Assembly (NCBI GenBank): GCA_947586855.1
Contig: CANPXV010000006.1
Coordinates: 14,982-78,981, forward strand
Source of the DNA: an uncultured Clostridia bacterium
GTDB taxonomy: Bacteria > Bacillota > Clostridia > Christensenellales > CAG-314
Direction of reading: 5' to 3'
Length of the DNA: 64,000 nucleotides
Within the stretch, counting starts at the first letter, position 1, and each line of letters starts with the position of its first letter. The notes below the pieces were generated by a model, which ran no database searches, had not been told where the DNA came from, and saw only the letters and a list, made by a program, of their open reading frames with translations. Made by a program: the position numbers and the translations under genes. Below, piece by piece: positions 7,621-54,178 of this stretch.

Positions 7621-7687
7621 CAAACCCCCTGCTGATGTGCGGCCATGCCGCAAGTAACTACAACCGACAATCAAGTAAAGGAACAAG

Positions 7688-9358: not shown

Positions 9359-9367
9359 GAGGAAATC

Positions 9368-10474: not shown

Positions 10475-10523
10475 TCTACATTTGCAGCTTTGCGCATAAC
10501 TTGTGCAACAAAAAGGTATCGCA

Positions 10524-11843: not shown

Positions 11844-11861
11844 CTCACAACGAGAACTACA

Positions 11862-12947: not shown

Positions 12948-13188
12948 GCAAAAAACCGTCTACAAGCAGGACGACGGCCGCACAATCTACTCTATGGCGG
13001 GCTTGGAGGGCAAAACTCCCGAAGAGCTCGAAGAGCGAGACAGGCAACGCCGCAACGCCGTCAAAGTGACCCGAAAGGAGCGCCGCGCCATGATTGCCGC
13101 CGCCTTTCAGGTGTACGGCCCAATTTTGCTCATCATTCTGGTGGCGTTTGGGCTGGCGGCGGTGATAGTTTATCTGCTTATGCGGTAA
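12931..13188 (+). CDS. small membrane protein (85 aa), last gene of the opp operon
   Basis: ATG overlaps the oppF end; 'DDGRTIYSM' followed by one C-terminal TM helix; terminator downstream. Confidence 0.7.
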   Translation: MSKKAKQKTVYKQDDGRTIYSMAGLEGKTPEELEERDRQRRNAVKVTRKERRAMIAAAFQVYGPILLIILVAFGLAAVIVYLLMR

Positions 13189-19790: not shown

Positions 19791-20636
19791 ATGGAACTGT
19801 TTATCCGTGCCCACGACCTTGGTGTCAAGGGCATAGACAACGTTATATCTCAGTTGGACGAGCTGACCTTGGACGGCGTGCAGCTTGTGGCCTACAAGGT
19901 GCTGCCCGATGTGCCCTATGCTGTGGGTGGTATGGATAGCGTCAAGGCGCAGGCCACGGGACGTGCGCTGGCAAATGCGGGCAAAAAGGTGGCGTTGATA
20001 GGCGCCTACTTCAACCCCGTTCACTCAGACAAGGGCAAGGTGGAGCGGTGCAAGCGCATCTTTTGCGACTACATCGACTGCGCCAAGCTGCTGGGTTGCG
20101 GCCTTGTCGGGTCGGAGACGGGCAGTTTCAACGACGACAAGTGGACCTACCACCCGCTCAACCGCACCGACGCCGCACTGCAAACGGTGGTGGAGACTTT
20201 TGGCGAGCTGGCGGACTATGCCGCACGCCGCAACGTCTGCATTGCCATGGAAGGCGCCTTTGGACACGTCTGTTACAGTGTGGACAGGTTGCAACAGGCG
20301 CTGGAACTTATCGGCAGGCCCAATGTCAAGGTGATATTCGATCTGTACAACTATCTGGATGTAACCAATGCGGATAGCTGCTACGACATTTTGCAGCAGG
20401 GGCTGGACACGTTCGGCAGGCGGATAGAAGTTTTTCACCTGAAAGATTTTCGTATCGAGCAGGGCAAGCTGACGCAATGTCCCGTTGGGCAGGGCGTGCT
20501 GGACTATGACAGGGTGCTCTCCGCCATATACCGCAGCAATCCCGAAGCCAAACTTGTTTTTGAAGGTACCGTCGGGCAAGATGTGCCCGCAGCGGTAAAG
20601 TTTATAAGGAGCAAACTAACAAAACTATGCAATTAG
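19791..20636 (+). CDS. sugar-phosphate isomerase/epimerase family TIM-barrel protein
   Basis: Metal-ligand pattern E (MEG), D-x-x-N (FDLYN), H-x-K-D (FHLKD), E (FEG). Confidence 0.75.
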   Translation: MELFIRAHDLGVKGIDNVISQLDELTLDGVQLVAYKVLPDVPYAVGGMDSVKAQATGRALANAGKKVALIGAYFNPVHSDKGKVERCKRIFCDYIDCAKLLGCGLVGSETGSFNDDKWTYHPLNRTDAALQTVVETFGELADYAARRNVCIAMEGAFGHVCYSVDRLQQALELIGRPNVKVIFDLYNYLDVTNADSCYDILQQGLDTFGRRIEVFHLKDFRIEQGKLTQCPVGQGVLDYDRVLSAIYRSNPEAKLVFEGTVGQDVPAAVKFIRSKLTKLCN

Positions 20637-21463: not shown

Positions 21464-21526
21464 GTTTCGGTAACTTTTTTGCCGCAAGGCAAAGTGACAA
21501 AAAATATAAAAAAGCGAGAGAAGGTC

Positions 21527-22624
21527 ATGGCATACTTAACACTCAAAAACATCAACAAAATTTATCCCAACGGCTTCCATGCGGTGCACGATTTCAATCT
21601 GGAAATCGAGCGTGGCGAGTTTATCGTCTTTGTTGGACCGTCCGGCTGCGGCAAAAGCACAACGCTGCGCATGATTGCCGGTCTGGAAAACATCTCCAAG
21701 GGAGATTTCTACATCGACGGTGTGCGTGCCAACGACAAAGGCCCCCGAGAGCGCCAGATAGCAATGGTGTTCCAGAGCTACGCACTGTATCCCCACATGA
21801 GCGTCTACGACAATCTGGCCTTCGGCTTGACTTTGCAGGGCGTGGACGAGGACGTGATCGAAGAACGGGTGATGAAAACGGCTAAGATCCTTGGCCTGAC
21901 GGAGTACCTCGACCGCAAACCACGTGCTCTTTCGGGCGGTCAGCGTCAACGTGTGGCGGTAGGACGTGCCATCATCCGCAAAGTGGGCGTGTTCCTGATG
22001 GACGAACCCCTTTCCAACCTCGACGCCAAGCAACGTGTCACAATGCGTTCGGAGATCACTCAGATCCACCGCGAAACCAAGGCTACCACCATCTACGTCA
22101 CGCACGACCAGACGGAGGCAATGACCATGGCGGACAGGATAGTAGTCATGAAGGACGGCTACATTCAGCAGGTGGGCACCCCCTACGAGCTGTACTTCAA
22201 CCCCGTCAACCTGTTTGTGGCGGGCTTCATCGGCGAGCCTCCTATGAACTTTGTGCCCACAACCGTCAACGGCGGCAAAGCTACCGTCGGCAACAACATG
22301 TTGGACCTCAGCCACGTCCTCAGTGGCGAAAAACTTGCCCAATACGAGGGCAAAGAAGTGGTGCTGGGCTTCCGCCCCGAAGGTATCGAGCTGGGCGAAA
22401 AGAAGGACGCCTACAATGTGGATTGCTTTGTGGAGCTTACCGAGCTGCTGGGCGACAACACCAACGTCTACGTCAACATCGGCAAGGACAGGGCTATCCT
22501 CAAAGTGGACCCGCACGACACCCCGTCAACGGATGTTGATATTCGTTTCAGCATAGCCTACGACAACGTGTACGTGTTCGACAAGGAGACCGAGCACGTC
22601 ATCACCGACCCCAAGCGCAAATAG
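21527..22624 (+). CDS. carbohydrate ABC ATPase (MsmX/MalK/UgpC family)
   Basis: GPSGCGKST, LSGGQRQR, MDEPLSNLDAK, YVTHDQ, C-terminal TOBE-like region. Confidence 0.92.
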   Translation: MAYLTLKNINKIYPNGFHAVHDFNLEIERGEFIVFVGPSGCGKSTTLRMIAGLENISKGDFYIDGVRANDKGPRERQIAMVFQSYALYPHMSVYDNLAFGLTLQGVDEDVIEERVMKTAKILGLTEYLDRKPRALSGGQRQRVAVGRAIIRKVGVFLMDEPLSNLDAKQRVTMRSEITQIHRETKATTIYVTHDQTEAMTMADRIVVMKDGYIQQVGTPYELYFNPVNLFVAGFIGEPPMNFVPTTVNGGKATVGNNMLDLSHVLSGEKLAQYEGKEVVLGFRPEGIELGEKKDAYNVDCFVELTELLGDNTNVYVNIGKDRAILKVDPHDTPSTDVDIRFSIAYDNVYVFDKETEHVITDPKRK

Positions 22625-28652: not shown

Positions 28653-29258
28653 TTGGCGCAAAAATCTTTGACCTTTGCCCAATATCGAGCGGCGGATGTT
28701 GCGATATTTACCGTTATCGCCACTGCGTTTGAGGCGCTTGTAACATTGGCGGCCACACAGTGGTTTCCCGATCAGGCGTACTCCATCAGCTTTGTGTACG
28801 TGTTTGCCGCCCTGGTGGCAATGCGATGGGGCGCCTGGATGCTTGTCCCCACAACCACAAGCGCATTGGCCTACTGCTTGGTGTTGCAGGCCGATTGGCA
28901 GATGTATCTGGTGATGGCACTTGGCAATGCCTTTTGCGTGTTGTTGCTGGTGTTGCACAAACTTATCGGCAAGCAGCGCATAAGAGACTCGGCCTGGTGG
29001 ACAACGCTGTATGTGGCGGCCACCTACGTGTTTGTATCTGCGGGGCGTTTGTTGGTGGGCTTGCCCATGCCGCAGATAACCGTTGCGGCCAGCCTCAACA
29101 GCATATTGTACGATGCGCTTCCTGCGGCGTTTGCGTTGGTGGTGGTGCTCATCTGCCGCAAGCAAAACGGCCTGTTCGAGGATCAGAAACACTACTTGAT
29201 ACGCACCCAAAAGGAACGGGACAAAGAACTGCGTCAATCCAACATTGACGAGCAATAG
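28653..29258 (+). CDS. membrane protein of unknown function (about 6 TM, ECF S-component-like size and topology)
   Basis: 201-aa hydrophobic ORF with TTG start, first gene of the sugar ABC operon. Confidence 0.7.
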   Translation: MAQKSLTFAQYRAADVAIFTVIATAFEALVTLAATQWFPDQAYSISFVYVFAALVAMRWGAWMLVPTTTSALAYCLVLQADWQMYLVMALGNAFCVLLLVLHKLIGKQRIRDSAWWTTLYVAATYVFVSAGRLLVGLPMPQITVAASLNSILYDALPAAFALVVVLICRKQNGLFEDQKHYLIRTQKERDKELRQSNIDEQ

Positions 29259-29293
29259 AACAAATTTCAGCAAAATTTTTTGGAGGAAATCCA

Positions 29294-30355
29294 ATGGCAG
29301 AAAAAGTATCAGAGCTCATTTTCGATGAGCAAACGAAAACTTATTCCATGGACCCCGAGCAAGTAGTACGAGACGATGTGGAAAAGCATCATTGGCTAAA
29401 CACGGCCAAGACCATTCTCAAAGATTGGCGGCTGTACCTGATGCTTGTTCCCATGCTGTTTGTGTTTATTTGCTGGCGTTACCTGCCGATGTACGAACTG
29501 TTGGGGAGTTTCAAACTGTCCCAAACGGGCGTAGAAGTCAACGACCAACTTTATCTGGGATTTTCCAGCTTCAAAACTCTGTTGTTTGGCGGCACCGAGC
29601 TGTCCATGGAGTTTTGGCGCGCATTCCGCAACACATTTTTGCTTAGTTTTTACGGATTGTGCTTTGGCTTTCCCATGCCGATAATTTTGGCGTTGTTCTT
29701 CAACGAGATCAAGTCCAACATCATGCGCAGCACCTTCCAGGTGCTCACATACCTGCCCAAGTTTATGTCCACCGTTGTCATGACAACGTTGGTTACAATG
29801 TTGGTCAAGGAGAGCAACATCGTCTCCGGCATGGGCGTCATTTCGCAGGCGTTGCAAGCGATGGGCATCATCTCTCCCGAAGTGGCCGAGGCAGGCCTGC
29901 TCAAAAATCCCGACCTGTTCCGCACGATCTACCAGGTCAGCGGCATCTGGGAGGGCGCAGGTTACGACAGCATAGTGTATTTTGCGGCGGTGATAGCCAT
30001 CTCGCCCACCAGCTACGAGGCGGCGCAGATAGACGGCGCCGGCAAAATGGCGCAAATGAGATACGTGGTGCTGCCCAGCATTTTGTCCACAGTGGTCATC
30101 ATGCTCATCACTCGTATCGGCTCGCTGCTCAGCGTAGGCTATGAAAAAGTTTTGTTGTTGTACAACAGCAACACTTGGGTCACCGCAGACGTTGTGTCCA
30201 CCTTCTCATATCGCTACGGCGGCATGGGCGGGGGCGGTTCCAGCCAGCCCGGCTTGGCGTCCGCAGCGGAAATGATCAACAACCTGATAGGTATGGTGCT
30301 TGTCATCGGTGCCAATGCGATCGCCCGCAAGGCAAGCGACGTTTCGCTGTACTAA
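29294..30355 (+). CDS. carbohydrate ABC permease (LplB/YteP-like)
   Basis: 'FPMPIILALFFNE', 'YLPKFMS', EAA loop 'YEAAQIDGAG', 'GYEKVLLL'. Confidence 0.9.
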   Translation: MAEKVSELIFDEQTKTYSMDPEQVVRDDVEKHHWLNTAKTILKDWRLYLMLVPMLFVFICWRYLPMYELLGSFKLSQTGVEVNDQLYLGFSSFKTLLFGGTELSMEFWRAFRNTFLLSFYGLCFGFPMPIILALFFNEIKSNIMRSTFQVLTYLPKFMSTVVMTTLVTMLVKESNIVSGMGVISQALQAMGIISPEVAEAGLLKNPDLFRTIYQVSGIWEGAGYDSIVYFAAVIAISPTSYEAAQIDGAGKMAQMRYVVLPSILSTVVIMLITRIGSLLSVGYEKVLLLYNSNTWVTADVVSTFSYRYGGMGGGGSSQPGLASAAEMINNLIGMVLVIGANAIARKASDVSLY

Positions 30356-30367
30356 GGAGGATAAGAT

Positions 30368-31258
30368 ATGAAACGGAAATTAGCAGCATCCGAACTGATA
30401 TTCAAAATTCTGTCCTATCTGTTCCTTGGTATATTTGCGCTGATGTGCCTGTATCCCTTTGTATTTACGCTCAGCAGCTCCATCAGCAGCTCGGAGGCGG
30501 TGGACAGCAACCAAGTCATTTTGCTGCCCAAGGGCATACAGTTTGACGCATTCAAAACGATGTTCACCGACAACCTGTTCTGGAACGCCTACGCCAACAC
30601 GCTGTTTTTGACGGTGTTTGGTACCGTGTGGGCGTTGGGAGTGGCCATCCTTGGCGGATATGCGCTCTCCAAAAAGCGTTTGCTGTTCCGCAAGGGATTC
30701 AACTTCTTTCTGGTGTTTACCATGTGGTTCAGCGCAGGTATCGTCCCTCAATACCTCAACTATGTCAAGACAAGAGACATATTTAACAGCCTTGGCATAA
30801 TGGACGACAAGTGGTTGATCGTCATTGCCATGGGTATGGCCGCCATGAACATCATCTTGTTGCGCAACGCTTTCGAGGGAGTGCCCTCCGAAATCGAAGA
30901 GGCGGCAATAGTGGACGGCGCCACCGAAATGCAGGTGCTGACAAAGGTGTATATCCCCATGTCCAAGTCCACGATAGCCACTGTCACATTGTTCTTTGCA
31001 ATATCCCGTTGGAACGGCTACTTCTGGGCAAGACAAATGATACAAAACTCCAACGAGTATCCGTTGCAGGTGTTCATTCGTCTCAAATTGGAGGACTACA
31101 CCAACCTGGAATACCTTGCCGGTTGGAGCGAAAACTACTCGGCCAACTCGGCAATATACGCACTGATAATTTGCGCCGTGATACCCATCCTTATCATTTA
31201 CCCCTTCATCCAAAAGTACTTTGCCAAGGGCGTAAACATGGGCGGCGTCAAAGAATAG
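30368..31258 (+). CDS. carbohydrate ABC permease (LplC/YtcP-like)
   Basis: 'FTMWFSAGIVP', 'EEAAIVDGA', 'YPFIQKYFAKGVNMGGVKE'. Confidence 0.9.
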   Translation: MKRKLAASELIFKILSYLFLGIFALMCLYPFVFTLSSSISSSEAVDSNQVILLPKGIQFDAFKTMFTDNLFWNAYANTLFLTVFGTVWALGVAILGGYALSKKRLLFRKGFNFFLVFTMWFSAGIVPQYLNYVKTRDIFNSLGIMDDKWLIVIAMGMAAMNIILLRNAFEGVPSEIEEAAIVDGATEMQVLTKVYIPMSKSTIATVTLFFAISRWNGYFWARQMIQNSNEYPLQVFIRLKLEDYTNLEYLAGWSENYSANSAIYALIICAVIPILIIYPFIQKYFAKGVNMGGVKE

Positions 31259-31327
31259 TCAAATGGCAACACCCGCTTTTAGCGGTAAACAAAAAAATCA
31301 AAAAATATATTTTTTAGGAGGAAAAAC

Positions 31328-33640
31328 ATGAAAAAGAGCAAAATCATTTTGTCGGTTGTGCTCGCTCTCGTGTTGGTTTGCACGGCGCTTGTCGCTGTTG
31401 CCTGCCACAAGCATGAGTTTGGCGGCGAGTGGTATGCAGATGCCACAAGTCACTGGCAAAAAGCCACCTGTGAGCATACCGAAGAAATCGGCAACAAGGC
31501 TCCGCACAATTTCCAAAACGGACGTTGCACGGTTTGCGGTTACACACAGGATCTGAGCACTTTGCTGCCCTATGCCGAAAACACCGTTCTGCGCATTGCC
31601 GCAGGCTACAACAACGGTGACACGGGTATCACCTTCTCGGCAAGCAAGGCAGGCTCCGGCGTCAAACTGTCCGACGGCACTACCTACAACGAAGGCGACC
31701 TGAAACCCACTTGGAAACAAATTTCCGAAGATATGAAAATCAAGTTCGAGAACAAATACTCCGGAAAGAGCGCTTCCAACGAGTACGACTATTGGGTAAC
31801 GGCAGAAAACACCGCAGCTGTTGACATCATGTCCGGTACTGCCACCAAATTGCAGGAAGGCGGTGCACAAGGTTTGTTCATCAACCTTGTTGACTACCTT
31901 GACAAGATGCCCAACTTCCGTCAATATCTCCAAGACAACCCCATTGTTCGTTTGTCCGTAACGGGCAGCGTAACAGGTAGCAATGCAGGCGCAATCTATT
32001 TCAGCCCCTACTTTGACGGCGTTGACGACATCGAGCGTTTCCCGCTGGTTCGTGCCGATTTGGTGAGAACCCTTCTCGACGGAACAACGGATTATTCCGG
32101 TGCCAATCGTGCTGTTACTGTCGGCAAGTATCAACCCTACATGCCCACAACCGGCACTGTTGCGGTAGAATCTTTGACCGCTGACGGCAAAGGCACACAA
32201 ACAATCACCAAAGATTACAGCAAGTACGGCAACATCATACAAAAGATGAACGCCGAAACCAATCTTACAGGTAACAAGGCCGTTGCAATGTTCCGCGAGT
32301 ACATCGACAAGACCTATGGCGACACCTATGCAAAGCGTTCTGACCTGTTCCTCGGCTATGATGCTGCTTGGGATGCTGACGAACTTGTAGCTTTGCTGCG
32401 TTGCGCCGTTGCTTCTCTGAACGACAGCACAAACGAGCATAACCCCATTTCCGGTCTGTACAGCCGTGAGACGGAAAACACTCAACGCGAAGTTGACCTG
32501 TTCCGCTTTGCCGGCAGCCTGTTTGGTGTGCGCGGTATGGAATCTCGTCAGGACTATCTGTACTTTGACAAGGACGGCAAGCTCCATGACGCTCGTCAGG
32601 AAACAGACGCTTACGAAGCTGTTCTGCGCCTCAACGCCATGAAAGAGGAAGGTTTGGTTTCTGTTACCGGTTCCGTCAACAGCCAGGATCGTCTTGCAAG
32701 AGACGCCGGTATCGTTTCGTACGATTACAGCCAGACTCAAACAATCTACAATGACACAGAACTCAACGGCGGCAAAAACGCTGTGGATAAGAATCAAAAA
32801 GGCGAAGAGTACACCCCGATGATGGTGCCCGTAGCTCACTGGGACGACGGCACAGGCGCACAGTATTTCAGATTTACCGAGTCCTGGCGTTCCGTCAAGA
32901 CCGAAGGTTGGGCAATCTCCAAGGCCGGCGTTGGCAGCGATACCAACAAGCTCAATGCGGCCCTTGCTCTCATCGACTTTGCGTTCTCTGTTCAGGGTCA
33001 AATCACCATGTCCTATGGTTCTGACGACTTCATCAAGGTCAAAAATGCAGATGCAGTTGTCAACATCATGTCCGATATCCCCAACAAGTACGAGACATTC
33101 ACCTTCAACGGAGAAGAGTGGCCTGTGATTTCCGACGGTTGCGCAACAGACCTTGCAAACCTTGCAAGCGGCAACTACACCAACTTTGCTCGTTTCTATC
33201 TTGGATCCACGTTGAACGGCTTCCCCAAGAGCCAGGCGTTCGAGTATCAATGCACTCACGAAGTAGGTAAGGCAGGCGCAGGAAAAGTTTCCGCCGCTAT
33301 CGGACTTGGCACCGTCAAGCACCCCGTTCTCAGTGTAAACAGCGACAATATGTGGTATACGTCTGTTCCCACAACGTTGCCTCACACCACAACCGAGAAC
33401 ACCGCCATCAACAGCTACACCGAACTTGGCACAAGCAAGTGGAGCAGCTCTTCCGGCCAGAACATCAACGTGTTCATCGAGATCATCAAGCTCGGTTGGA
33501 GCAACACAGCTATCACAGCAACAAGTGCTCAGACGGCAGTGAACGTTGTAAAGACTGATTGGCACGGAACGCAATACCTGACTTACAAGCAAGCCGCTTG
33601 GGACAGACTGCTTCAATTCTACAACACTCTTAGCAAATAA
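31328..33640 (+). CDS. large extracellular solute-binding lipoprotein (770 aa), probable oligogalacturonide receptor
   Basis: Lipobox AVAC; SBP-like segments 'NLVDYLDKMPNFRQYL' and 'GWAISK'; directly follows the permeases; N-terminal His/Cys module. Confidence 0.75.
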   Translation: MKKSKIILSVVLALVLVCTALVAVACHKHEFGGEWYADATSHWQKATCEHTEEIGNKAPHNFQNGRCTVCGYTQDLSTLLPYAENTVLRIAAGYNNGDTGITFSASKAGSGVKLSDGTTYNEGDLKPTWKQISEDMKIKFENKYSGKSASNEYDYWVTAENTAAVDIMSGTATKLQEGGAQGLFINLVDYLDKMPNFRQYLQDNPIVRLSVTGSVTGSNAGAIYFSPYFDGVDDIERFPLVRADLVRTLLDGTTDYSGANRAVTVGKYQPYMPTTGTVAVESLTADGKGTQTITKDYSKYGNIIQKMNAETNLTGNKAVAMFREYIDKTYGDTYAKRSDLFLGYDAAWDADELVALLRCAVASLNDSTNEHNPISGLYSRETENTQREVDLFRFAGSLFGVRGMESRQDYLYFDKDGKLHDARQETDAYEAVLRLNAMKEEGLVSVTGSVNSQDRLARDAGIVSYDYSQTQTIYNDTELNGGKNAVDKNQKGEEYTPMMVPVAHWDDGTGAQYFRFTESWRSVKTEGWAISKAGVGSDTNKLNAALALIDFAFSVQGQITMSYGSDDFIKVKNADAVVNIMSDIPNKYETFTFNGEEWPVISDGCATDLANLASGNYTNFARFYLGSTLNGFPKSQAFEYQCTHEVGKAGAGKVSAAIGLGTVKHPVLSVNSDNMWYTSVPTTLPHTTTENTAINSYTELGTSKWSSSSGQNINVFIEIIKLGWSNTAITATSAQTAVNVVKTDWHGTQYLTYKQAAWDRLLQFYNTLSK

Positions 33641-33684
33641 CAAAATCGATTGCAGCAGTGCAACAAACTGCAAACAATTTGTTC

Positions 33685-33709
33685 CTCGGGGAGGCGTCCC
33701 CTCCCCGAG
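33685..33709 (+). other. GC-rich stem-loop after the SBP gene (probable mRNA stabiliser or partial terminator)
   Basis: CTCGGGGAGG-cgtcc-CCTCCCCGAG with no U-tract. Confidence 0.6.
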
Positions 33710-33764
33710 AGGGCAAATTACAAAACAATTCCGTCACTTGTGACAGAACGGAGGACTGAAAACT

Positions 33765-34457
33765 ATGTTTAAGTCGCAGATGAGATTTCAAAAAATCCTT
33801 TGCTTGGCATGCCTCATATTGTCGGCATTGCTGTTTGTGTACGCAATAGGATTTGTCACCCCGATTTACGATCAGTATTTCCTCACCATGGACAGAGAAC
33901 TCGGCGAAGACTATGCCCGTGTGGAGGGCGCTCAGATCTTTTGGGAGTTGGAAACGTTGACCAGCTACGAAGTGCGGGACGTTTTTGACAGCAACAATAA
34001 CTGGGTGGGCACCGAAAATGTCAAGGTGCGAGAGATTGGGCTGATCGATCAGATGTTGGGCGTTGCCATTGCAGATATATGTGTAGCGATTTTGTTATTT
34101 GTTTTCAACACCCACAAGCGCAGAAAGTACTACATCGGCAATTATATCGCCACCGGGGTATATGCAGCTTACAATGTCGCCATTGCCGCCTGGATAATCG
34201 CTCGCCTCAACTACTTTATCAAGGGCTTTGCAAAGGTCAACCTCGAACAGCTCAAAGCGTTTTGCGAAGAGCAAAACATCGCCTATCGCCCGCAAGCCAC
34301 AACCAACATTTTGTATGTGGGCATTGCGCTGTGCGTTGTTTTGATGCTGGCCGCTGTGGCAGTGGTGCTCAACTTACTTTGGAAATTACAGCTTCAAAAG
34401 CGTGAAAATAAACTGTTGCAACAAAACCAAGCAGAGGAGGTGGCAGTCAATGGCTAA
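33765..34457 (+). CDS. membrane protein of unknown function (about 4 TM)
   Basis: GGAGG RBS; hydrophobic helices; overlaps the next gene. Confidence 0.8.
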   Translation: MFKSQMRFQKILCLACLILSALLFVYAIGFVTPIYDQYFLTMDRELGEDYARVEGAQIFWELETLTSYEVRDVFDSNNNWVGTENVKVREIGLIDQMLGVAIADICVAILLFVFNTHKRRKYYIGNYIATGVYAAYNVAIAAWIIARLNYFIKGFAKVNLEQLKAFCEEQNIAYRPQATTNILYVGIALCVVLMLAAVAVVLNLLWKLQLQKRENKLLQQNQAEEVAVNG

Positions 34458-35088
34458 CACATTCGAACGCACTCAGTACGAGCAGGAAGTGACAGAGGAG
34501 GCCACCGACAAGGTAGTTTCCGTCAAGGATACCGTGCAGGAGACTGTCGAGCATGCGTCGCAGTCCGACGTGGCCGAGGTGCAACGCCCGCTGATGGACA
34601 AGGACGAGGAGCGCAAAATCCGTCAGGACAGGATGCGCTTTGTCACCAACAAACTTTCCAGCGGTCTGGCGATACTTGCAATATTGCTAAACGTGTTCTA
34701 CTTTGTAAGTATCTATCGCTCCAACGCCAACTTCTACTATTCCATCGACATCGGCATATCCGTGTTGCTCAATCTGCTGTTTATGCTTGCGGTGTTTCTT
34801 TGCTCCGAAGGCGTCAAAAACTACAACAAAAGCTACTCTATCGCCCTGATAGTGATTGGTGTGATAGAGTTGGCGCGGATATTCTTTTTGCCCCTTTCGG
34901 CGCACAATGCAACGGTAACGGACGCAGCGGGCGTCACCAGCAAGATCATGTCCGACGCACAATTTGCTCGCGTCACGATCTATCTTGCATGCGCCGCAGC
35001 ATTGCTGCTTGCCTCCGGCATAATCGGCGTCATTCGCAGCGTCAAGCTTGCCGCCTACAAAAAAACTCTGGACGAAAAACCCGCATAA
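34450..35088 (+). CDS. membrane protein of unknown function (about 4 TM)
   Basis: GGAGG RBS before ATG 34450; acidic N-terminal tail followed by 4 TM segments. Confidence 0.8.
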   Translation: MANTFERTQYEQEVTEEATDKVVSVKDTVQETVEHASQSDVAEVQRPLMDKDEERKIRQDRMRFVTNKLSSGLAILAILLNVFYFVSIYRSNANFYYSIDIGISVLLNLLFMLAVFLCSEGVKNYNKSYSIALIVIGVIELARIFFLPLSAHNATVTDAAGVTSKIMSDAQFARVTIYLACAAALLLASGIIGVIRSVKLAAYKKTLDEKPA

Positions 35089-35097
35089 GGAGAAGTT

Positions 35098-36156
35098 ATG
35101 GCAGAACTAAGTTTACAACATCTTGACAAAATCTACGACAACAAGGTGCAAGCCGTATACGACTTCAATCTTGACGTAAAGGACGGCGAGTTTATCGTTT
35201 TGGTTGGACCCTCCGGTTGCGGCAAATCCACAACGCTGCGCATGGTGGCAGGGTTGGAGGATATCTCCAACGGCACCCTCATCATCGACGGCAAGGACGT
35301 GACCCGCATGCCCCCCAAAGACAGGGACATAGCGATGGTGTTCCAGAACTACGCCCTCTACGGCCACATGACCATCTACGAAAATATGGCATTCAGCCTG
35401 GTGCTGCGCAAGGAAAACAAAAACGTCATCCACCAAAAGGTGATGGCCGCAGCGGAAATTTTGGGATTGACCGAGCAGCTCAACAAAAAGCCCAAGCAAC
35501 TATCCGGCGGACAGCGCCAACGTGTGGCAATGGGCCGTGCGATAGTGCGCAACCCCAAGGTGTTTTTGTTTGACGAGCCCCTTTCCAACCTGGACGCCAA
35601 GTTGAGGGGCGCAATGCGCCGAGAAATCATGTTGCTGCACAAGCGTTTGGGCGCAACCATGCTGTACGTTACGCACGACCAGACCGAGGCGCTCACCTTG
35701 GCCGACCGCATTGTGTGCATGTCCATGGGACACGTCCAGCAAATCGGCACCCCGTTGGAGCTGTACGACACCCCGGCCAACCTGTTTGTGGCCAGCTTTA
35801 TCGGCCTGCCCCCGATGAATTTGTTTGATGTGGATGTGCAGCGAGATCGCTTGGTGGGCGACAGCTTTGTCTATCCCCTCAATGCCGAGCAGCAACGCCT
35901 GCTGGCGGACTACAACGGCAAAAAGATTGTGCTGGGCGTTCGTCCCGAGCACATTGTGGAGGGTGGCGAGACGGTGCTGAACGTCACCAACAACGAAAAT
36001 CTCGGCCAAAACACTCTTGTTCACGGGCACATCGGCGGCAAATCCGTTGTTGCCAAGATACGGGATTGGTGCCACTACAAGTACGGCGACAAGGTGAATG
36101 TCAGTTTCAGCACTGTGCATTTCTTCGATAAAGAAACGGAAAACGCCATCAGGTAA
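35098..36156 (+). CDS. carbohydrate ABC ATPase (MalK/MsmX family)
   Basis: GPSGCGKST, LSGGQRQR, FDEPLSNLDAK, YVTHDQ. Confidence 0.92.
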   Translation: MAELSLQHLDKIYDNKVQAVYDFNLDVKDGEFIVLVGPSGCGKSTTLRMVAGLEDISNGTLIIDGKDVTRMPPKDRDIAMVFQNYALYGHMTIYENMAFSLVLRKENKNVIHQKVMAAAEILGLTEQLNKKPKQLSGGQRQRVAMGRAIVRNPKVFLFDEPLSNLDAKLRGAMRREIMLLHKRLGATMLYVTHDQTEALTLADRIVCMSMGHVQQIGTPLELYDTPANLFVASFIGLPPMNLFDVDVQRDRLVGDSFVYPLNAEQQRLLADYNGKKIVLGVRPEHIVEGGETVLNVTNNENLGQNTLVHGHIGGKSVVAKIRDWCHYKYGDKVNVSFSTVHFFDKETENAIR

Positions 36157-36167
36157 GGAGAGCAACT

Positions 36168-36818
36168 ATGGATAACCTCGAAACAACCGCAACGGAAGCC
36201 GTGCAAGAGACGGCCGCCCCCGTTGAAAAGAAAAAAACATCAGCCAAGGAGTTTTTTGTGAGACTTGGCGCCGGCACCCGCGAGTTTTTCCGCAAGATAA
36301 TGGTGTCGTTGAAGCGCCGTCCGCACAACGTTGCACTGTGCATGCTTCTGATAAGTTTCATCGTGTACTCGTTTGCGCTGTCCAGCATGTCCAAAACTAC
36401 GGCTTTGATACAAGGCTCCGGCATGGGATTGTTTGAATTTGCCATCATGCTGTTCTCTCTGTTGTCGCTGGTGTGTTTCCTCAATGCCTTCCCCAAGAGG
36501 GCAAAGGTCAAGATCGTATTTTTGGTGCTGCTGTTTGCAATGCTTGCGCTGGTGTTGGTGTGCGACATCATGTACTTTGTCCGCATCAACGAGGCGCTCA
36601 CCCGCACCAACAATCCCATCGTGCTGCCCTCGGACGGATCCCGCGACTACGTGCTAAAAGCCAAGACTATCTCGCTGGTGCACATCGTGTTGTTGGGCAT
36701 TTCGATAGCGCTCACCGCAACTATCCCCCTGTACGGCAAGCTGTTCCAAAAGGTCAAAACAAGCATCGAGTTGGAGTACACCGAGGCAGAGGACGCCGTG
36801 GAGCTTGCGGAGGACTGA
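36168..36818 (+). CDS. membrane protein of unknown function (about 4 TM)
   Basis: AAGGAG RBS; amphipathic N-terminal helix followed by 4 TM segments. Confidence 0.8.
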   Translation: MDNLETTATEAVQETAAPVEKKKTSAKEFFVRLGAGTREFFRKIMVSLKRRPHNVALCMLLISFIVYSFALSSMSKTTALIQGSGMGLFEFAIMLFSLLSLVCFLNAFPKRAKVKIVFLVLLFAMLALVLVCDIMYFVRINEALTRTNNPIVLPSDGSRDYVLKAKTISLVHIVLLGISIALTATIPLYGKLFQKVKTSIELEYTEAEDAVELAED

Positions 36819-36870
36819 TTTTCAGCCAACAATTTCAGCCGTCAAATCGGTTTTCTCCTCAATACAAAAT

Positions 36871-36903
36871 GCAACAGACACGTTTTTGCGTCTGTTGCTT
36901 TTT
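36871..36903 (+). terminator. intrinsic terminator of the pectin ABC operon
   Basis: GCAACAGAC...GTCTGTTGC followed by TTTTT. Confidence 0.7.
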
Positions 36904-36934
36904 GCAAAATAGAGGCTGATGGTTGCGTCGCCGC

Positions 36935-36963
36935 TTGCCAATCGCCGCAATATACTGTATAAT
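36935..36963 (+). promoter_or_regulatory. promoter of the membrane protein-GH28-GH105 operon, predicting a leaderless mRNA
   Basis: TTGCCA 36935-40, 17 bp, TATAAT 36958-63, 6 nt, then ATG 36970. Confidence 0.65.
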
Positions 36964-36969
36964 AAGGAT

Positions 36970-37776
36970 ATGTCAAAGAAATCCAAACAAAAGCAAAAGT
37001 TCATCTACGAAAAGGACCTGGACAACTACTACGAGCTGCACAACGACGCCGTGGATCGTCTGGTGGACGCCGACGAGGACAACGTGCCCGAAGTGGGCGA
37101 GGCCGAGCTGAAACAGTACAAATCCAGCAAATTGTCCAAGATCCCCATGTGGATACGGGCGCTGTTTATCAAATTTTGGTTCAATGGCGCAGTGTGTTTC
37201 TTCTTCCTGTGGGGATTGTCGCTGTTTTTGCAAAACGTCTGGGATCAGATATTGGTGGTGGGCTTTGCCATGGGCGTGGTTACCGACCTGTTGGTCAACA
37301 ACGTGTTCCGCTTTCTCGCCGACGAGCCCAACGCCAACAACAAATGGATGATGATCCCGCAAAAGCGTTTCTGGACCATTTTTGTCAACATCATCTACGC
37401 CTATGCGGTGCTGTCGTTGGTGGTGCTTACCTATCAGGGTATCAACTTGCTGATAACGGGCGGCACTCTGGACGAATACAACTTCGGCAACTTTTTGGGA
37501 GTGGAGCCGTTTTTGTTCGGCTTGTTCTACCTGCTGTTCGATATGCTGTTCATCGGTATCAAGGACGGCATTGTCGAGGCCGTGCGCAAGGTGAAGGAGG
37601 CTCGCACCCTCAAAAAGCAGCAAACTGCCGCTGCCGAAGGCTCGCCAGATGACGCCGCTGCCGAAGCGCAAATGCCTTTTGACGAAACCGCCGAGCCTGC
37701 GCCCCCGCAAACGGTGACCATTGTGCAGCAAGTGGTGCACACCTCATCCAAAAAGAAACATAAAAAGAAAAAATAA
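36970..37776 (+). CDS. membrane protein of unknown function (about 4 TM, Lys-rich C-terminal tail)
   Basis: 'KFWFNGAVCFFFLWGL', 'GVEPFLFG'; C-terminus SSKKKHKKKK. Confidence 0.8.
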   Translation: MSKKSKQKQKFIYEKDLDNYYELHNDAVDRLVDADEDNVPEVGEAELKQYKSSKLSKIPMWIRALFIKFWFNGAVCFFFLWGLSLFLQNVWDQILVVGFAMGVVTDLLVNNVFRFLADEPNANNKWMMIPQKRFWTIFVNIIYAYAVLSLVVLTYQGINLLITGGTLDEYNFGNFLGVEPFLFGLFYLLFDMLFIGIKDGIVEAVRKVKEARTLKKQQTAAAEGSPDDAAAEAQMPFDETAEPAPPQTVTIVQQVVHTSSKKKHKKKK

Positions 37777-37795: not shown

Positions 37796-39358
37796 ATGAT
37801 AAAACTTGTATTTGTCAGCTCCACAACAGCCTGCTTCGAGTGGCAAAACAGCCGCCCCTACTACACCGAGCGCAGCTACGAGGTCATTCTGAACGGCGTG
37901 CCTCAATTTTCGGCCAACACCAATGTGTTCAGTTTGTTCAACCTCAAACCTGCCACGCAGTATGTGGTGGAAATCAACGACACGGCGATCAAGCTGCAAT
38001 TTGAGACCCCCGCCGAGACGTGCTGTCTGGACGTGGCCGACTTCGGCGCCAAGGGAGACGGCGTAACGGACGACACGCACGCCATACAAAACGCCATACA
38101 CTGCCTGCCCAAGAGGGGGAGGCTGCTGTTCCGCAAGGGCACCTATCTTGTTTCGCCCATCTGCCTCAAAAGCGAAATCACATTGGAGCTGTGCGCCGAC
38201 GCCACCCTTGTGGGCCGCACCGAGCGGGATAGCTATCCGCTGATTCCCGGCGAGATACGTGATGTGGAGACGGGCGAAATGCACCAGATCGGCGCCTGGG
38301 AGGGCGAACCTACCACCATGCACCAATCGCTTGTTTTCGGAGAGCATCTGCACGACGTGTATGTGGTGGGACAAGGCTCCATCGACGGCAACGCACAAAA
38401 CTCCGATTGGTGGATAGACGTTAAAAACCAGCCCTACGGTCGTCCCCGTCTGGTGTTTCTCAACCGTTGCACCAACGTGTATTTTCACGGAATCACGGGC
38501 AAAAACAGCGCCTCGTGGCAGTTTCATCCCTATTTTTGCACCAACGTAAATTTCTACGGGGTAAGCGTGCTTGCGCCCAAGGATAGCCCCAACACCGACG
38601 CCATCGACCCCGAAAGCTGCGACAACGTGCACATTGTGGGTTGCCGCCTCAGCGTGGGCGACGATTGTATCGGTATCAAGTCCGGCAAGATGTATCTGGG
38701 ACAAAAATACAAAACGCCCGCCAATCACCACACAATACGCAACTGCTACATGCGCTACGGCCACGGCGCCATAACGTTGGGCAGCGAAAACGCCGGCGGC
38801 GTGCAAAATCTCACCGTCAACCGCTGTATTTTTGACAGTACCGACAGGGGCCTGCGTATCAAAACCCGCAGGGGACGGGGCAAGTACGCCGTCATCGACG
38901 GCATCACCTTCGAAAACATCTACATGAACCATGTGCTGACGCCCATTGTCATCAACATGTGGTACAATTGCTGCGATCCCGACAGATACTCCGAGTACAA
39001 CACCACCCGAGAAAAGCTGCCCGTAGACGACCGCACGCCCCACTTGGGACGTTTCCACTTCAAGGATATGGTGTGCGACAATTGTCACGTTGCCGCCTGC
39101 TACTGCGACGGCCTGCCCGAGCAGCCCATCGACGAGATTGTCATCGAAAACATCAAGTTCAACTATTCGGTCAATGCAACTCACGGCGGCGTGCCCGCCA
39201 TGCAAAACAACCCCAAGGTGCTGTGCCGTGCGGGGATGTACTTCGACAACGTATCTCGGCTGCGCATACGCAACGTGCAGCTGGACGGCGTCAAGGGCGA
39301 CGCAGTTGTCAAAAACAACGTCGCCGACTACAAGGAGGAGCAATGTACGAGCAAATAG
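37796..39358 (+). CDS. GH28 (exo-)polygalacturonase with an N-terminal FN3-like domain, no signal peptide
   Basis: GH28 motifs NTD, GDDC, GHG, RIK; 'DFGAKGDGVTDDT'. Confidence 0.93.
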   Translation: MIKLVFVSSTTACFEWQNSRPYYTERSYEVILNGVPQFSANTNVFSLFNLKPATQYVVEINDTAIKLQFETPAETCCLDVADFGAKGDGVTDDTHAIQNAIHCLPKRGRLLFRKGTYLVSPICLKSEITLELCADATLVGRTERDSYPLIPGEIRDVETGEMHQIGAWEGEPTTMHQSLVFGEHLHDVYVVGQGSIDGNAQNSDWWIDVKNQPYGRPRLVFLNRCTNVYFHGITGKNSASWQFHPYFCTNVNFYGVSVLAPKDSPNTDAIDPESCDNVHIVGCRLSVGDDCIGIKSGKMYLGQKYKTPANHHTIRNCYMRYGHGAITLGSENAGGVQNLTVNRCIFDSTDRGLRIKTRRGRGKYAVIDGITFENIYMNHVLTPIVINMWYNCCDPDRYSEYNTTREKLPVDDRTPHLGRFHFKDMVCDNCHVAACYCDGLPEQPIDEIVIENIKFNYSVNATHGGVPAMQNNPKVLCRAGMYFDNVSRLRIRNVQLDGVKGDAVVKNNVADYKEEQCTSK

Positions 39359-40464
39359 AGCAATATGTGGACAGAATTTTGCGAGAATCCACCCCCGCAT
39401 GTCCCTTTTGGAACATCGAAAGCATCAAGCAGGGCAAGCAGCCGCATTGGAACTACATCGACGGTTGCATGCTCACTTCGCTGCTTAAACTGCACAAACT
39501 GACGGGCGAACAGCGCTACTTTGAGTTTGTGGAGCGCTTTGTGGACTTTTATGTGTTCGAGGACGGCTCCATCAGGGGCTACGACAAGCAAAACTTCAAC
39601 CTCGACGACATCAACGAGGGCAAGGTGCTGTTTGAGCTGTACCGTGTGACGGGCAAGGACAAGTACAAGTTGGCCATCGACCTGCTCAAATCGCAGCTGG
39701 ACGACCAGCCCCGCACCTCCACGGGCAACTTCTGGCACAAGCTCATCTATCCCAACCAGGTGTGGTTGGACGGGCTGTATATGGCGCAGGGGTTTTCCAC
39801 GCTGTGGCAAAAGCACGTCGGCAACAAAGATTACAGCGACGTGGTGCGGCAGATCGTCAATGTGCGCAAGTACATGTACGACGAGCACAAAAAGCTGTTC
39901 TATCACGGGTGGGATTGCTCTCGTACGGCCTTTTGGTGCAACAAGCAAACGGGGCTTTCGGCCAACTTTTGGCTGCGTGCCATGGGCTGGTATCTGGTGG
40001 CCATGGCGGACTTTTTGGAGGAGTGCGACGACCCCGAAAGTTGCCGTCAGGTGGCGGAGGTGTTCCGTCTGGCGATAGAGGGCGTTGCAAACTATGTGGA
40101 CAGCGAAACTCACATGCTGTTTCAGGTGGTGGATCGCATAGGCGAGCAGGGCAACTATCCCGAGACAAGCGGCAGCAGTATGGTGGCCTACGCTATGTTG
40201 AAGGGCGCACGTCTGGGCTACCTCGACGCCTCTTTCAGCGCATTGGGCAAGCAGATTTTCGACGGCATTTGCACACGCTACCTCAGCGGCGACAACGGCG
40301 AGCTCAATCTGGGCGGCATATGCCTTGTTGCGGGCCTCGGTCCGGAAAACAACCGCCGCAGAGACGGCAGCTACCAATACTACATTTCCGAGCCTGTCGT
40401 TGCCAACGACGCAAAGGGCGTGGCACCGTTTGTGCTGTGCTACACCGAGATAAAGCAGCTGTGA
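39343..40464 (+). CDS. GH105 unsaturated (rhamno)galacturonyl hydrolase (YteR-like)
   Basis: 'WNYIDG', 'NLDDIN', 'FWHK..YPNQVWLDGLYM', 'FWLRAMGW'; GGAGG RBS before ATG 39343. Confidence 0.92.
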   Translation: MYEQIEQYVDRILRESTPACPFWNIESIKQGKQPHWNYIDGCMLTSLLKLHKLTGEQRYFEFVERFVDFYVFEDGSIRGYDKQNFNLDDINEGKVLFELYRVTGKDKYKLAIDLLKSQLDDQPRTSTGNFWHKLIYPNQVWLDGLYMAQGFSTLWQKHVGNKDYSDVVRQIVNVRKYMYDEHKKLFYHGWDCSRTAFWCNKQTGLSANFWLRAMGWYLVAMADFLEECDDPESCRQVAEVFRLAIEGVANYVDSETHMLFQVVDRIGEQGNYPETSGSSMVAYAMLKGARLGYLDASFSALGKQIFDGICTRYLSGDNGELNLGGICLVAGLGPENNRRRDGSYQYYISEPVVANDAKGVAPFVLCYTEIKQL

Positions 40465-48648: not shown

Positions 48649-50127
48649 ATGAAAAAGTTAGCTATTGTATTGACGCTGGTGTTGGTGCTTGCCGCCGCAG
48701 TTACAGCGTTTGCTGCTTGCAAAAACGATTACGACCTCATCTACGACTGCTGGAATCTCGGCACCGATGCGGAGCCCACGGTCGAGGAGTACATGATCCA
48801 AGCCTTCGAGGAGGCGCACAACGTAAGGATCATGCGCCGCAACCACCCGGGAAGCAGCTACGGCGACGCTATCAAATCCACGATAGGCAGAGGCGAAGCC
48901 CCCGATGTGTTTATGATAGACAGCATCAACTATGTGCTGTCCAATCAATATGGTCTGGACATCACAGAGTATGCCGCAAACGATGAGGATTGGAAAAACA
49001 TCCCCGCCGCATTGGAAGAATCCGCCCACTACAAGAGCGGTATCTATGCAGTCCCCTTTGCCATGCACATGGAAGGTTTCTTTGTGAACGTCGATCTTCT
49101 CAAAAAGAATAACGTCACTTCTCCCACCAAAGGTTCCAGCCTTCCCTATCCCACCAAAGCTTCCGACTTTACCTACGAGTGGTTCAAAGAGGCCATCTCC
49201 AAGGTGACGATGGCCGACCCCGCAACAAATCAGAAAGCCAAGGGATTGCTTTCCGAATCGGAATTTATGGATTGGTACCCCTCCGCCGTCAACAGCGACT
49301 ACGGTATGTTTACCTGGGACGGCAGCAAGTACAATCTGGACTCGCCCGAATTTGCCGAGGCTTTGGCCCAGACGGCGGATATCAGGGCCAAGGGCTACTC
49401 CTACGATTCGCTCAGCGCCGAAGAGCGCCAGGCCGACTTTGGCGGGGTGGATCCAGTTGACGCCTTCAACCAAGGCAAGGTGGCCTTCCGCTACGGCAAG
49501 AGCTACGAAGCCCCCGACATGTTCCAAAAATCCGGCGGTAACTTCGAAATTGTGTTTTTGGGTATCCCATATGTCCAAAATTCCACTTCCGATCACAAGC
49601 GTACGGAAAGCTTTTCGATAATGATACCCGACTATACAGCCGTCTACAAGGAAACCAAAAATCCCGAATTGGCCTTTGAATTTGCCAAGTGGATGGGTTA
49701 CAGCCCCGAAGGCATCCAAAAGCGTATCGAGCTGGCCCAGGACGCCAAAGACCTTGCAAACCAAGTGCCCAACACGCTGCCCATGACCACGGACGAAAGC
49801 GCTATCGAAAAGTACTTTGCCATCTATCCTGTCAAAGGCGTGGAGAAAATGTACGAAAATCTGGACAAGTTGATCATGGAACCCACCAAGGTGGTCCCCG
49901 GCTACACAGGTTCCAGATGGAACGCCGTTACCAAGCTGGAAATCAAAGTTATGGAAGACAACGAACTCAAAACCAAGCAGAACGCCAAGATAGGTGAATT
50001 TTTGGACGCTTGCTGGAACGGCTACGGCGATGTGGACTTTACCCCCGAGCGTGCAGCAAGCTGCAACAATCTGGCCAACCAGCAGTACGCCAATATGGTT
50101 GCCAAATACGAGGAACTTTACCATTAA
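48649..50127 (+). CDS. carbohydrate ABC solute-binding lipoprotein (family 1)
   Basis: Lipobox AFAAC; 'GEAPDVF', 'IYAVPF', 'KNPELAFEFAKWM'. Confidence 0.88.
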   Translation: MKKLAIVLTLVLVLAAAVTAFAACKNDYDLIYDCWNLGTDAEPTVEEYMIQAFEEAHNVRIMRRNHPGSSYGDAIKSTIGRGEAPDVFMIDSINYVLSNQYGLDITEYAANDEDWKNIPAALEESAHYKSGIYAVPFAMHMEGFFVNVDLLKKNNVTSPTKGSSLPYPTKASDFTYEWFKEAISKVTMADPATNQKAKGLLSESEFMDWYPSAVNSDYGMFTWDGSKYNLDSPEFAEALAQTADIRAKGYSYDSLSAEERQADFGGVDPVDAFNQGKVAFRYGKSYEAPDMFQKSGGNFEIVFLGIPYVQNSTSDHKRTESFSIMIPDYTAVYKETKNPELAFEFAKWMGYSPEGIQKRIELAQDAKDLANQVPNTLPMTTDESAIEKYFAIYPVKGVEKMYENLDKLIMEPTKVVPGYTGSRWNAVTKLEIKVMEDNELKTKQNAKIGEFLDACWNGYGDVDFTPERAASCNNLANQQYANMVAKYEELYH

Positions 50128-50230
50128 AAAACGTCGATAGAGTCGTAAAAAATGCTTACGGCTCTATCTGTCCCGTTGCGGAGACGCCGCAACAAGTGCG
50201 CACCGCACTAAAAAATCCAAGGAAAACGTT

Positions 50231-53200: not shown

Positions 53201-54163
53201 ATGACAGAAATTACAGTCAAAAAAGAAAAGTCGATGCGGCTTCCTTCTCGGCAGGAGCTGAAAAAGAAGGGAATCGGCGGCAAGCGTAGCGGCTTTACAA
53301 CGGCGCTGCTGATAGCACCCTACATATTGTCGTTTGTGGTGTTTATCGTGCTGCCCGTTGTCATCGCCATAGGATTGTCCTTTACCGACTTCAACAGTAT
53401 CAGCTCGCCCCATTTTGTAGGCTTCGGTAACTACATTCGCCTGCTTACAAGCGACGAGGAATTCATGCAAAAGGTGCTGCCCAACACCATCAAGTTTGCA
53501 CTTATCGCAGGGCCGACGGGATACTTGCTTTCCTTCCTGCTGGCCTGGATGTTGGCGCAGATACCCAAGCTGCCCCGCACAATATTGGCCTTGCTGATCT
53601 ACTCGCCGTCGCTTACTGCGGGCGTGGCAATGCAAGTGGTGTGGACGACGATATTCTCCGGCGACCCAAACGGCTACCTCAACGCAATATTGTTGAAATG
53701 GGGTGTGATTTCCGAAGCGGTGCAATGGCTGCAAAGCGAAGAATACCTGATGACCATCATGATCATCGTCACAGTGTGGTCCAGCATGGGCGTGGGATTT
53801 TTGGCTATGCTGTCCGGCATACTCAACATCGACCCCGAGCTGTACGAGGCGGCCTATATGGACGGCATGAAAAACCGCGCGCAGGAGATATGGTACGTCA
53901 CGCTGCCCTCTATGAAGCCGCAATTGCTGTTTGGCGCAGTTATGGCGGTGGTCAACACGTTCCAAGCGGGCGCAATCGGCGTGCAGCTATCCGGCTCTAA
54001 CCCGACGCCCAACTATGCAGGTCAGTTGATGGTCAACCACATCGAGGACTACGGCTACATTCGCTACGAAATGGGCTATGCCGCAGCCGTCAGCGTGGTG
54101 CTGCTGTTGCTGATATACCTGCTGAGCAAGATTATCCGTGCTATCCTCACGGAAAAAGACTGA
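53201..54163 (+). CDS. carbohydrate ABC permease (MalF-like)
   Basis: 'FVGFGNY', 'LYEAAYMDG', 'RYEMGYAAA'. Confidence 0.9.
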
Positions 54164-54178
54164 TAGCGGAGGTACCCA

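Follow-up and report, generated by a model that had tools for sequence, protein, structure and literature searches.

A putative oligogalacturonide importer module that combines a type I ABC core with five additional membrane proteins

We examined a 64,000-nucleotide (nt) stretch of DNA from an uncultured Clostridia bacterium (hereafter, the window; GenBank assembly GCA_947586855.1, contig CANPXV010000006.1, positions 14,982 to 78,981) and found that nine consecutive genes within it form a module that recurs, with the same content and order, in many other lineages. The module encodes the core of a type I ATP-binding cassette (ABC) importer, consisting of a solute-binding protein (SBP), two permeases (P1 and P2) and an ATPase (A1), together with five membrane proteins (M1–M5); the gene for a second ATPase (A2) is found 6 kb upstream. 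In its textbook form, a type I ABC importer has five parts: an SBP, a pair of permeases and one ATPase in two copies. Among the loci examined here, the core was never found without the five added membrane proteins, one of which is predicted to have the substrate-capture fold of a different importer class. We consider it somewhat probable that these genes define an undescribed, horizontally spread importer module for oligogalacturonides, built from a type I core, two MalK paralogues and five membrane proteins of its own. By their submitters' labels, the gut and rumen bacteria that conserve the module span several phyla, and if its proteins assemble they would represent a new importer architecture and at least four new membrane protein families. 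An original prediction, made from the DNA letters alone, had proposed an undescribed multi-subunit importer at this site; as far as comparative analysis and structure prediction go, our results support it.

Content, order and confinement of the module

In the window, all nine genes lie on the plus strand in the order M1-P1-P2-SBP-M2-M3-A1-M4-M5 and are followed by genes for a GH28 and a GH105 enzyme. The features discussed below are as follows.

28653-29258, plus strand: M1, 201 residues, six-helix membrane protein with a predicted energy-coupling factor (ECF) S-component fold
29294-30355, plus strand: P1, type I ABC permease with EAA loop (BPD_transp_1)
30368-31258, plus strand: P2, type I ABC permease with EAA loop (BPD_transp_1)
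31328-33640, plus strand: SBP, 770-residue lipoprotein, AlgQ-like solute-binding protein
33765-34457, plus strand: M2, four-helix membrane protein with a 66-residue acidic outer loop and a conserved RRKYY inner loop
34450-35088, plus strand: M3, four-helix membrane protein with conserved DRMRY, SEGVKNY and RIF.IP..AH motifs
35098-36156, plus strand: A1, MalK/UgpC-type ABC ATPase (ABC_tran and OB_MalK)
36168-36818, plus strand: M4, membrane protein of four helices in which an outer loop (YSLNLT.ISNTTA) and an inner loop (FPKR.KP) are conserved
36871-36898, no strand assigned: palindromic stem-loop with a T-run on the plus strand (consensus match only)
36935-36963, no strand assigned: promoter-like TTGCCA-17-TATAAT, 3' of the stem-loop (consensus match only)
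36970-37776, plus strand: M5, four-helix membrane protein with motifs KALFIKFWFNGA.CFF..WGL, TD.LVNN.FRF, KWMMFP and GVEP
37796-39358, plus strand: GH28 polygalacturonase without a signal peptide (Pfam; NCBIfam PglA-like)
39343-40464, plus strand: GH105/GH88 unsaturated uronyl hydrolase (Glyco_hydro_88, E 6e-76)
21527-22624, plus strand: A2, second MalK-type ABC ATPase (ABC_tran and OB_MalK), inside a hexuronate operon

The five membrane open reading frames (ORFs), two permeases, 770-residue SBP and ATPase are all present on this strand where the original prediction had placed them, and the starts it gave for M3 and M5 agree with those of their orthologues. The tight spacing around A1 that it had remarked on is likewise real: M2 and M3 overlap by 8 nt, and gaps of 9 and 11 nt separate M3 from A1 and A1 from M4. 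M4 and M5 are 151 nt apart, and M5 precedes GH28 by 19 nt. Because the M4-M5 spacer holds both the stem-loop with its T-run and the promoter-like site, M5 may head a GH28-GH105 transcript in this lineage, as had been suggested; in most lineages, however, it begins no more than about 10 nt 3' of M4 and is therefore part of the module. The promoter-like site ends 6 nt 5' of the M5 start codon; given that site, the M5-GH28-GH105 transcript of the window's lineage would be leaderless or nearly so.

Searches of the window's proteins against Pfam and NCBIfam define the core. Pfam identifies BPD_transp_1 (PF00528) in P1 (E 4e-8) and P2 (E 7e-15), and an EAA...G stretch is visible in both sequences; NCBIfam returns weak UgpA/MalF matches for P1, MalG/UgpE-like matches for P2 and, for A1, a match above the cut-off for the UgpC subfamily (E 1e-140). 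With two EAA-loop permeases, a MalK-type ATPase bearing an OB domain and an SBP, the core is CUT1-like, of the MalFGK2 type. The five membrane genes and the second ATPase paralogue exceed the usual CUT1 composition of an SBP, two permeases and one kind of ATPase. M1–M5 matched no family in either collection, and the SBP matched none in Pfam.

To assess conservation, one genome per species was scanned with an M5 alignment, yielding 130 confirmed loci, the best 80 of which were examined. Profile searches detected M4 in 80/80 of these, M3 in 74/80, M2 in 73/80 and M1 in 57/80, each in a constant relative position. Every locus uncut at its 5' end (57/57) carries all nine genes in identical order, with M1 first. 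In the remaining 23, the locus starts no more than 161 nt into the fetched stretch; the missing genes are thus cut off rather than absent. In the loci examined, M1–M5 never occurred without P1-P2-SBP. Submitters assigned most loci to Bacillota (Lachnospiraceae, Oscillospiraceae, Christensenellaceae and Erysipelotrichaceae), and a few bins are labelled Spirochaetota, Coriobacteriaceae or Chloroflexi. Closer to the window, M2 is carried by three of 24 congeners searched, with the whole locus syntenic, and a hidden Markov model scan places A1 and M4 in congener G007 (contig L014). Across many lineages, orthologues of the M genes share 26-61% identity while keeping length, topology and motifs, a pattern that shows the M genes to be genuine. 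One locus (L016, equivalent to G003:C80) comes from a congener labelled Candidatus Fimimonas, a genus placed under Myxococcaceae in the NCBI taxonomy; the label looks misplaced, most of the module's relatives and of the small 1.5-Mb genomes bearing Clostridia or Bacillota labels.

Within the genomes and loci examined, the five M families are restricted to the module. The gene-neighborhood check that had been proposed for the orphan proteins places their homologues only inside it, in all 80 loci and in G410, a genome from a class sample of 399-400 evenly drawn genomes that was searched with profiles; G410 has the full module followed by GH28 and GH105. In that sample, clear matches to the M1, M4 and M5 profiles occur in two genomes only, the window's own (G000) and G410, and the M4 and M1 profiles each add two marginal partial matches (E ~1e-4). 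The SBP profile at E<=1e-10, with two candidates scored per genome, finds the same two. The window's own genome (1.47 Mb, 7960 ORFs) contains no paralogue of M1–M5. The material examined thus contained no homologue in an unrelated context and no match to a known family.

The families are nonetheless large. The M5 family comprises at least 1678 clusters at 90% identity and that of M1 at least 1148, and M4 has 412 representative clusters at 50% identity (E<=1e-3). With more than 1000 clusters for each of M1 and M5, there are sufficient sequences to analyse co-evolution between the proteins and to select a tractable homologue. All 120 M1 and 120 M5 relatives among the matches listed are annotated as hypothetical and lack a Pfam domain. 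When 120 diverse M1–M5 members and seven SBPs were searched against Pfam, none exceeded the cut-off, and only scattered sub-threshold matches were obtained. Nor did we find a description of the module in the literature surveyed, including the available parts of PMC13543919, PMC13501991 and PMC6344614, whose supplements may list the genes in expression tables.

The solute-binding protein and the pectin context

The SBP begins with a lipoprotein-like signal ending in cysteine and retains 52-63% identity across lineages. A profile built from 61 orthologues matches AlgQ1 and AlgQ2 (E 2e-9 to 3e-8) and, less strongly, family-1 SBPs (E 3e-5), and the nearest named clusters in the Atlas are SBP_bac_8 and SBP_bac_1 (0.91-0.92). 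On the strength of these profile matches, the protein is AlgQ-like, of the type that binds acidic oligosaccharides. Residues 26-71 of the window's SBP (31403-31540), at the start of the mature protein, form a Cys/His-rich stretch, C..H.H....W....H W...C.H...H.F..G.C..CG, which looks like a small metal-binding or disulfide module and is not kept in the orthologue consensus (61 sequences). In the Christensenellaceae-type locus L021, an additional SBP paralogue of 802 residues (10618-13026) lies directly 3' of M5, and A2 is directly 5' of M1.

The neighbors of the module point to pectin. In the window it is flanked by a CE8 pectinesterase, an AraC regulator and a CE4 esterase. The link to pectin made in the original prediction holds across lineages: in 4/5 lineages annotated, the flanks of the module contain GH28, GH105, CE8, Uxa, Kdu, KdgK or Eda genes, GH28 adjoins M5 in 39 of the 57 complete loci, and GH105 is present in 32 of them. 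The fetched flank of the Christensenellaceae-type locus L021 contains no pectin genes of these kinds. Since the N-termini of CE8, GH28, GH105 and CE4 show no signal-like sequence, esterified oligomers would be imported before they are degraded. A further suggestion, that the membrane proteins form a scaffold for cytoplasmic pectinases, found nothing in its favor. In an Erysipelotrichaceae locus (L077:12991-14844), a 617-residue ORF combines pectinesterase and 2-keto-3-deoxy-6-phosphogluconate aldolase domains and is either a true fusion or an ORF-calling artefact.

The fold of M1, the four-helix proteins and the paired ATPases

The absence of a recognizable motif in the five membrane proteins, as first reported, stands at the level of Pfam and NCBIfam; it does not extend to structure, where M1 proves to have an identifiable fold. 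A hydropathy scan finds at least five membrane segments in M1, and an AF2 model built from 58 sequences has six membrane helices and a predicted local distance difference test (pLDDT) score of 94.8. In a VIA structure search, the top 21 rows are all ECF S-components (Z 14.0-7.4 over 150-170 residues), among them ThiT, PanT, RibU, BioY, FolT, CbrT and the L. brevis S subunit, with unrelated folds ranking below them. The best match, 4hzu_S, aligns over 160 residues (Z 14.0, root mean square deviation 3.5), and Foldseek pairs M1 with ThiT at probability 1.00 and a template modelling score of 0.5-0.6. The modeled structure therefore assigns M1 to the ECF S-component fold, although neither M1 nor 24 diverse orthologues match any S-component sequence family in Pfam or NCBIfam, and a PDB profile search with M1 returned nothing relevant.

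This fold raises the question of whether M1 acts as a standard group II ECF S-component drawing on the genome's shared EcfAA'T, while M2–M5 serve purposes other than transport (for instance, anchoring, sensing or envelope functions linked to pectin-dependent growth) and sit in the operon for co-regulation only. The window's own genome does encode a canonical EcfT (CbiQ, E 5e-42) beside two ABC ATPase ORFs on contig 18, and some M4 relatives resemble surface-exposed proteins in having long, variable outer-loop inserts. We nevertheless regard this explanation as improbable. Helix 1 of S-components bears a conserved small-residue AxxxA motif that contacts EcfT; across 58 sequences, helix 1 of M1 has no conserved small-residue pair, position 33 alone being small (93%), with I/L/V and W at positions 29 and 37. 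M1 also falls outside the S-component sequence families, and a strict order maintained across phyla by families confined to the module goes beyond what co-regulation usually preserves. The invariant residues of M1 are Y11, D15 and E27, all in helix 1, together with R58 and D154, and a C-terminal motif predicted to be cytoplasmic, G..EDQK.YL.R, is conserved.

M2–M5 share a simple predicted topology of four membrane segments each, with both termini placed in the cytoplasm by the K/R distribution in the loops. Paralogy among M1–M5 was considered and rejected: BLAST detected none, and hhalign comparisons of broad alignments all gave probabilities below 3%. An AF2 model of M5 (81 sequences, pLDDT 79) is a bundle of four long helices that has no relative in the PDB, the best Foldseek E being 0.76 and the best VIA-wide Z 6.8, at background level; a PDB profile search with M5 gave nothing meaningful. 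An ESM Atlas search with M4 returned only hypothetical clusters, below 0.9. Complex prediction for M2, M3, M4 and M5, with M5 as the partner, scored 0.00 against a mark of 0.32, a result that speaks neither for nor against binding. The inserted M4 relatives are 340-858 residues long, with the extra sequence joining helix 3 to helix 4 on the side predicted to face outward. The insert comprises about eight repeats of ~70 residues in P0301 and is Ala/Glu/Lys-rich and coiled-coil-like in P0267, P0276 and P0275; no Pfam family matched these inserts.

The second ATPase noted in the eda operon of the window is also a MalK-type protein. Its ORF spans 21479-22624, with a probable start at 21527, and lies in the operon Eda-KdgK-TIM-KduI-A2-UxaB-UxaA-UxaC. 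A1 and A2 are 52.5% identical, and Walker A, Q-loop, LSGGQ, Walker B and H-loop are intact in both. A tree of 138 MalK-like proteins groups A2 of the window with 54 second ATPases from other loci (support 100), in a clade separate from A1 and from the other MalK paralogues of the window's genome; a mixture-model IQ-TREE analysis of a 43-row subsample agrees on the A1 and A2 clades (SH-aLRT 99 and 100). Of the 57 complete loci, 42 have A2 in the fetched flank: it follows GH28-GH105-TIM in 23, comes immediately after M5 in 12, immediately precedes M1 in six and is elsewhere upstream in one. Because the fetched stretches extend only 1-2.5 kb upstream of M1, an A2 in a window-like position would go unseen.

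A2 also accompanies the module where the two are unlinked. All four other carriers tested have an A2 orthologue (67-90% identity) in the same catabolic operon; in each of five non-carrier congeners, the best full-length match is 50-56% identical; one partial match reaches 63%. The co-occurrence of this separate paralogue clade with the module fits the heterodimeric ATPase that had been suggested, and a pairing of A1 with A2 on the asymmetric P1/P2 pair would be the simplest reading of the data. A xylose-isomerase-like TIM-barrel gene (AP_endonuc_2) accompanies A2 across lineages, as TIM-KduI-A2 or GH105-TIM-A2 (window 19791-20636; L087:13267-14130; L082:1460-2422).

Alternatively, A2 might be a multitask ATPase shared within the pectin regulon, in the manner of MsmX, and the importer might use an A1 homodimer. 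In the window's lineage, G410, G003 and G007, A2 sits in the catabolic operon and not in the module, and sharing of ATPases is known for the pectin ABC importers of Bacillus subtilis (in the part of PMC5730181 available). Several observations argue against this alternative, which we hold to be unlikely: the module already encodes an ATPase of its own, the parts of the regulon seen contain no other permease pair, A2 directly follows M5 in 19 and directly precedes M1 in six of the 80 loci, and the window's genome carries further MalK-like ATPases for its other CUT1 loci.

Module history, proposed mechanism and relation to known importers

Comparison of gene trees indicates that the module has not been inherited as a single block. 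In approximately unbiased (AU) tests, M1, A1 and M5 each reject the tree of P1-P2-SBP-M2-M3 (p<=5e-5), M2 and M3 each reject the M1-A1-M5 tree (p<=0.005), and M4 rejects neither. Two differing trees imply that a P1-P2-SBP-M2-M3 cassette was swapped between modules while its flanks, M1 and A1 through M5, stayed together. Evolutionary rates covary between A1 and M5 (0.62), M1 and A1 (0.51), P1 and P2 (0.49), P2 and SBP (0.42) and SBP and M3 (0.40; partial Mantel tests, 57 loci). We considered this covariation as a sign of protein contacts and dropped the idea, since exchange of the contiguous cassette explains it. The trees are compatible with co-adaptation of M2 and M3 to the permeases and SBP, for which contiguity alone is a sufficient explanation.

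These histories bear on the foremost rival to a single importer, namely that the locus encodes two transporters: a classical CUT1 importer comprising SBP-P1-P2 and a homodimer of one ATPase, and a new ECF-like transporter in which M1 captures the substrate, M2–M5 stand in for the T-component and energy comes from the other MalK paralogue. The substrate of the latter might be galacturonate or an unsaturated monomer. The S-component fold of M1, the presence of two catalytically intact and co-occurring ATPase paralogues, the tight spacing of the M2-M3-A1-M4-M5 run and the common tree of M1, A1 and M5, distinct from that of the middle genes, would all be accounted for. Against it, M2 and M3 share their history with P1, P2 and SBP rather than with A1. 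Moreover, nothing resembling EcfT is encoded at the locus and Pfam assigns none of the M proteins to CbiQ/EcfT, A1 and A2 are each of the MalK type and carry the OB regulatory domain that typifies type I importers, and M1–M5 are always accompanied by P1-P2-SBP in the loci examined. We therefore think two separate transporters unlikely.

Under the single-importer explanation that we prefer, a CUT1-like type I ABC importer would serve as the core, with P1 and P2 forming the pore. The AlgQ-like lipoprotein would capture acidic oligosaccharides outside the cell, and cytoplasmic CE8, CE4, GH28 and GH105 enzymes would strip and cleave the imported oligomers into products that feed the Uxa and Kdu/Kdg/Eda pathways. 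A1 and A2 most likely work as a heterodimer on the asymmetric permease pair, and M1–M5 are most likely stoichiometric accessory subunits of the same membrane complex. What the analyses establish is the gene content and order, the confinement of the five families to the module, the clade and co-occurrence of A2, the fold of M1, the kinship of the SBP and the pectin context; the substrate, the ATPase pairing, physical assembly, stoichiometry and the role of each M protein are what we infer. More tentatively, all ten proteins could constitute one hybrid machine with more than 30 membrane helices, in which P1/P2 and an A1/A2 heterodimer are permanently docked to M1–M5, and co-adaptation ties M2 and M3 to the permease/SBP cassette and ties M1 and M5 to the ATPase side; we see this as possible but doubtful. 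Such a machine would be a new architectural class joining type I and ECF features. The module would also define a marker for cytoplasmic use of pectin oligomers in uncultured herbivore-gut Clostridia. The matching sequencing runs listed are all of DNA, from rabbit gut and gut metagenomes, with no RNA run among them.

Several points weigh against a single complex. The M proteins evolve three to four times faster than the core, with mean distances of 0.79-1.10 as opposed to 0.24-0.31 for P1, P2 and A1. In the window, the stem-loop and promoter-like site split M4 from M5. In G007 and G410, A2 is on a different contig from the module, within the catabolic operon, and being unlinked and so placed it could serve another function of the pectin regulon. 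A search for M3 fusions among proteins of at least 432 residues revealed none with a neighboring gene, which is weak evidence, and since only the best 80 of 130 loci were examined, distant relatives in other contexts are possible.

Two other ABC loci in the window may be mentioned. A second CUT1-type sugar locus (SBPs at 48649-53185; permeases at 53201-55051 and 59336-61767) includes two extra genes at 55097-59318, one encoding a 688-residue NHL-repeat protein with a C-terminal Yip1 membrane domain and the other a DUF5696 protein. Extra membrane proteins in sugar ABC loci may be a wider theme in this genome. An Opp/Dpp-type importer (5077-12947) features an 847-residue SBP_bac_5 protein and an unusually long first permease of 556 residues.

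The module has partial counterparts among characterized importers. TogMNAB of Dickeya dadantii is similar in its presumed oligogalacturonide substrate class, its CUT1 type and its linkage to pectin catabolism; it consists of four components only, a description that sets it apart from the module. In the Alg importer, a single ATPase, AlgS, forms a homodimer, and to our knowledge no extra membrane subunits have been described. That system, AlgM1M2SS-AlgQ1/Q2 of Sphingomonas sp. A1 (PDB 4tqu among others), is likewise a type I importer with two different permeases, in its case for acidic uronate oligo- and polysaccharides. It differs in its SBP: that of the module is a lipoprotein of 700-800 residues, and the AlgQ match covers only ~100 N-lobe residues. 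Also comparable are the Firmicute CUT1 importers for pectin fragments, YtcQP-YteP and YesOPQ with MsmX of Bacillus subtilis, in which the ATPase is also encoded away from the permeases; MsmX serves many importers (both points from the available part of PMC5730181), whereas A1 and A2 both belong to this module alone, with which five additional membrane proteins are conserved. Finally, ECF transporters, composed of an S-component, EcfT and EcfA/EcfA', share with the module the fold of M1 and the use of two different ATPases. In contrast to these, the module lacks an EcfT at the locus, its ATPases are of the MalK and not the EcfA type, and its M1 stands outside the S-component sequence families and invariably accompanies an SBP-dependent type I importer.

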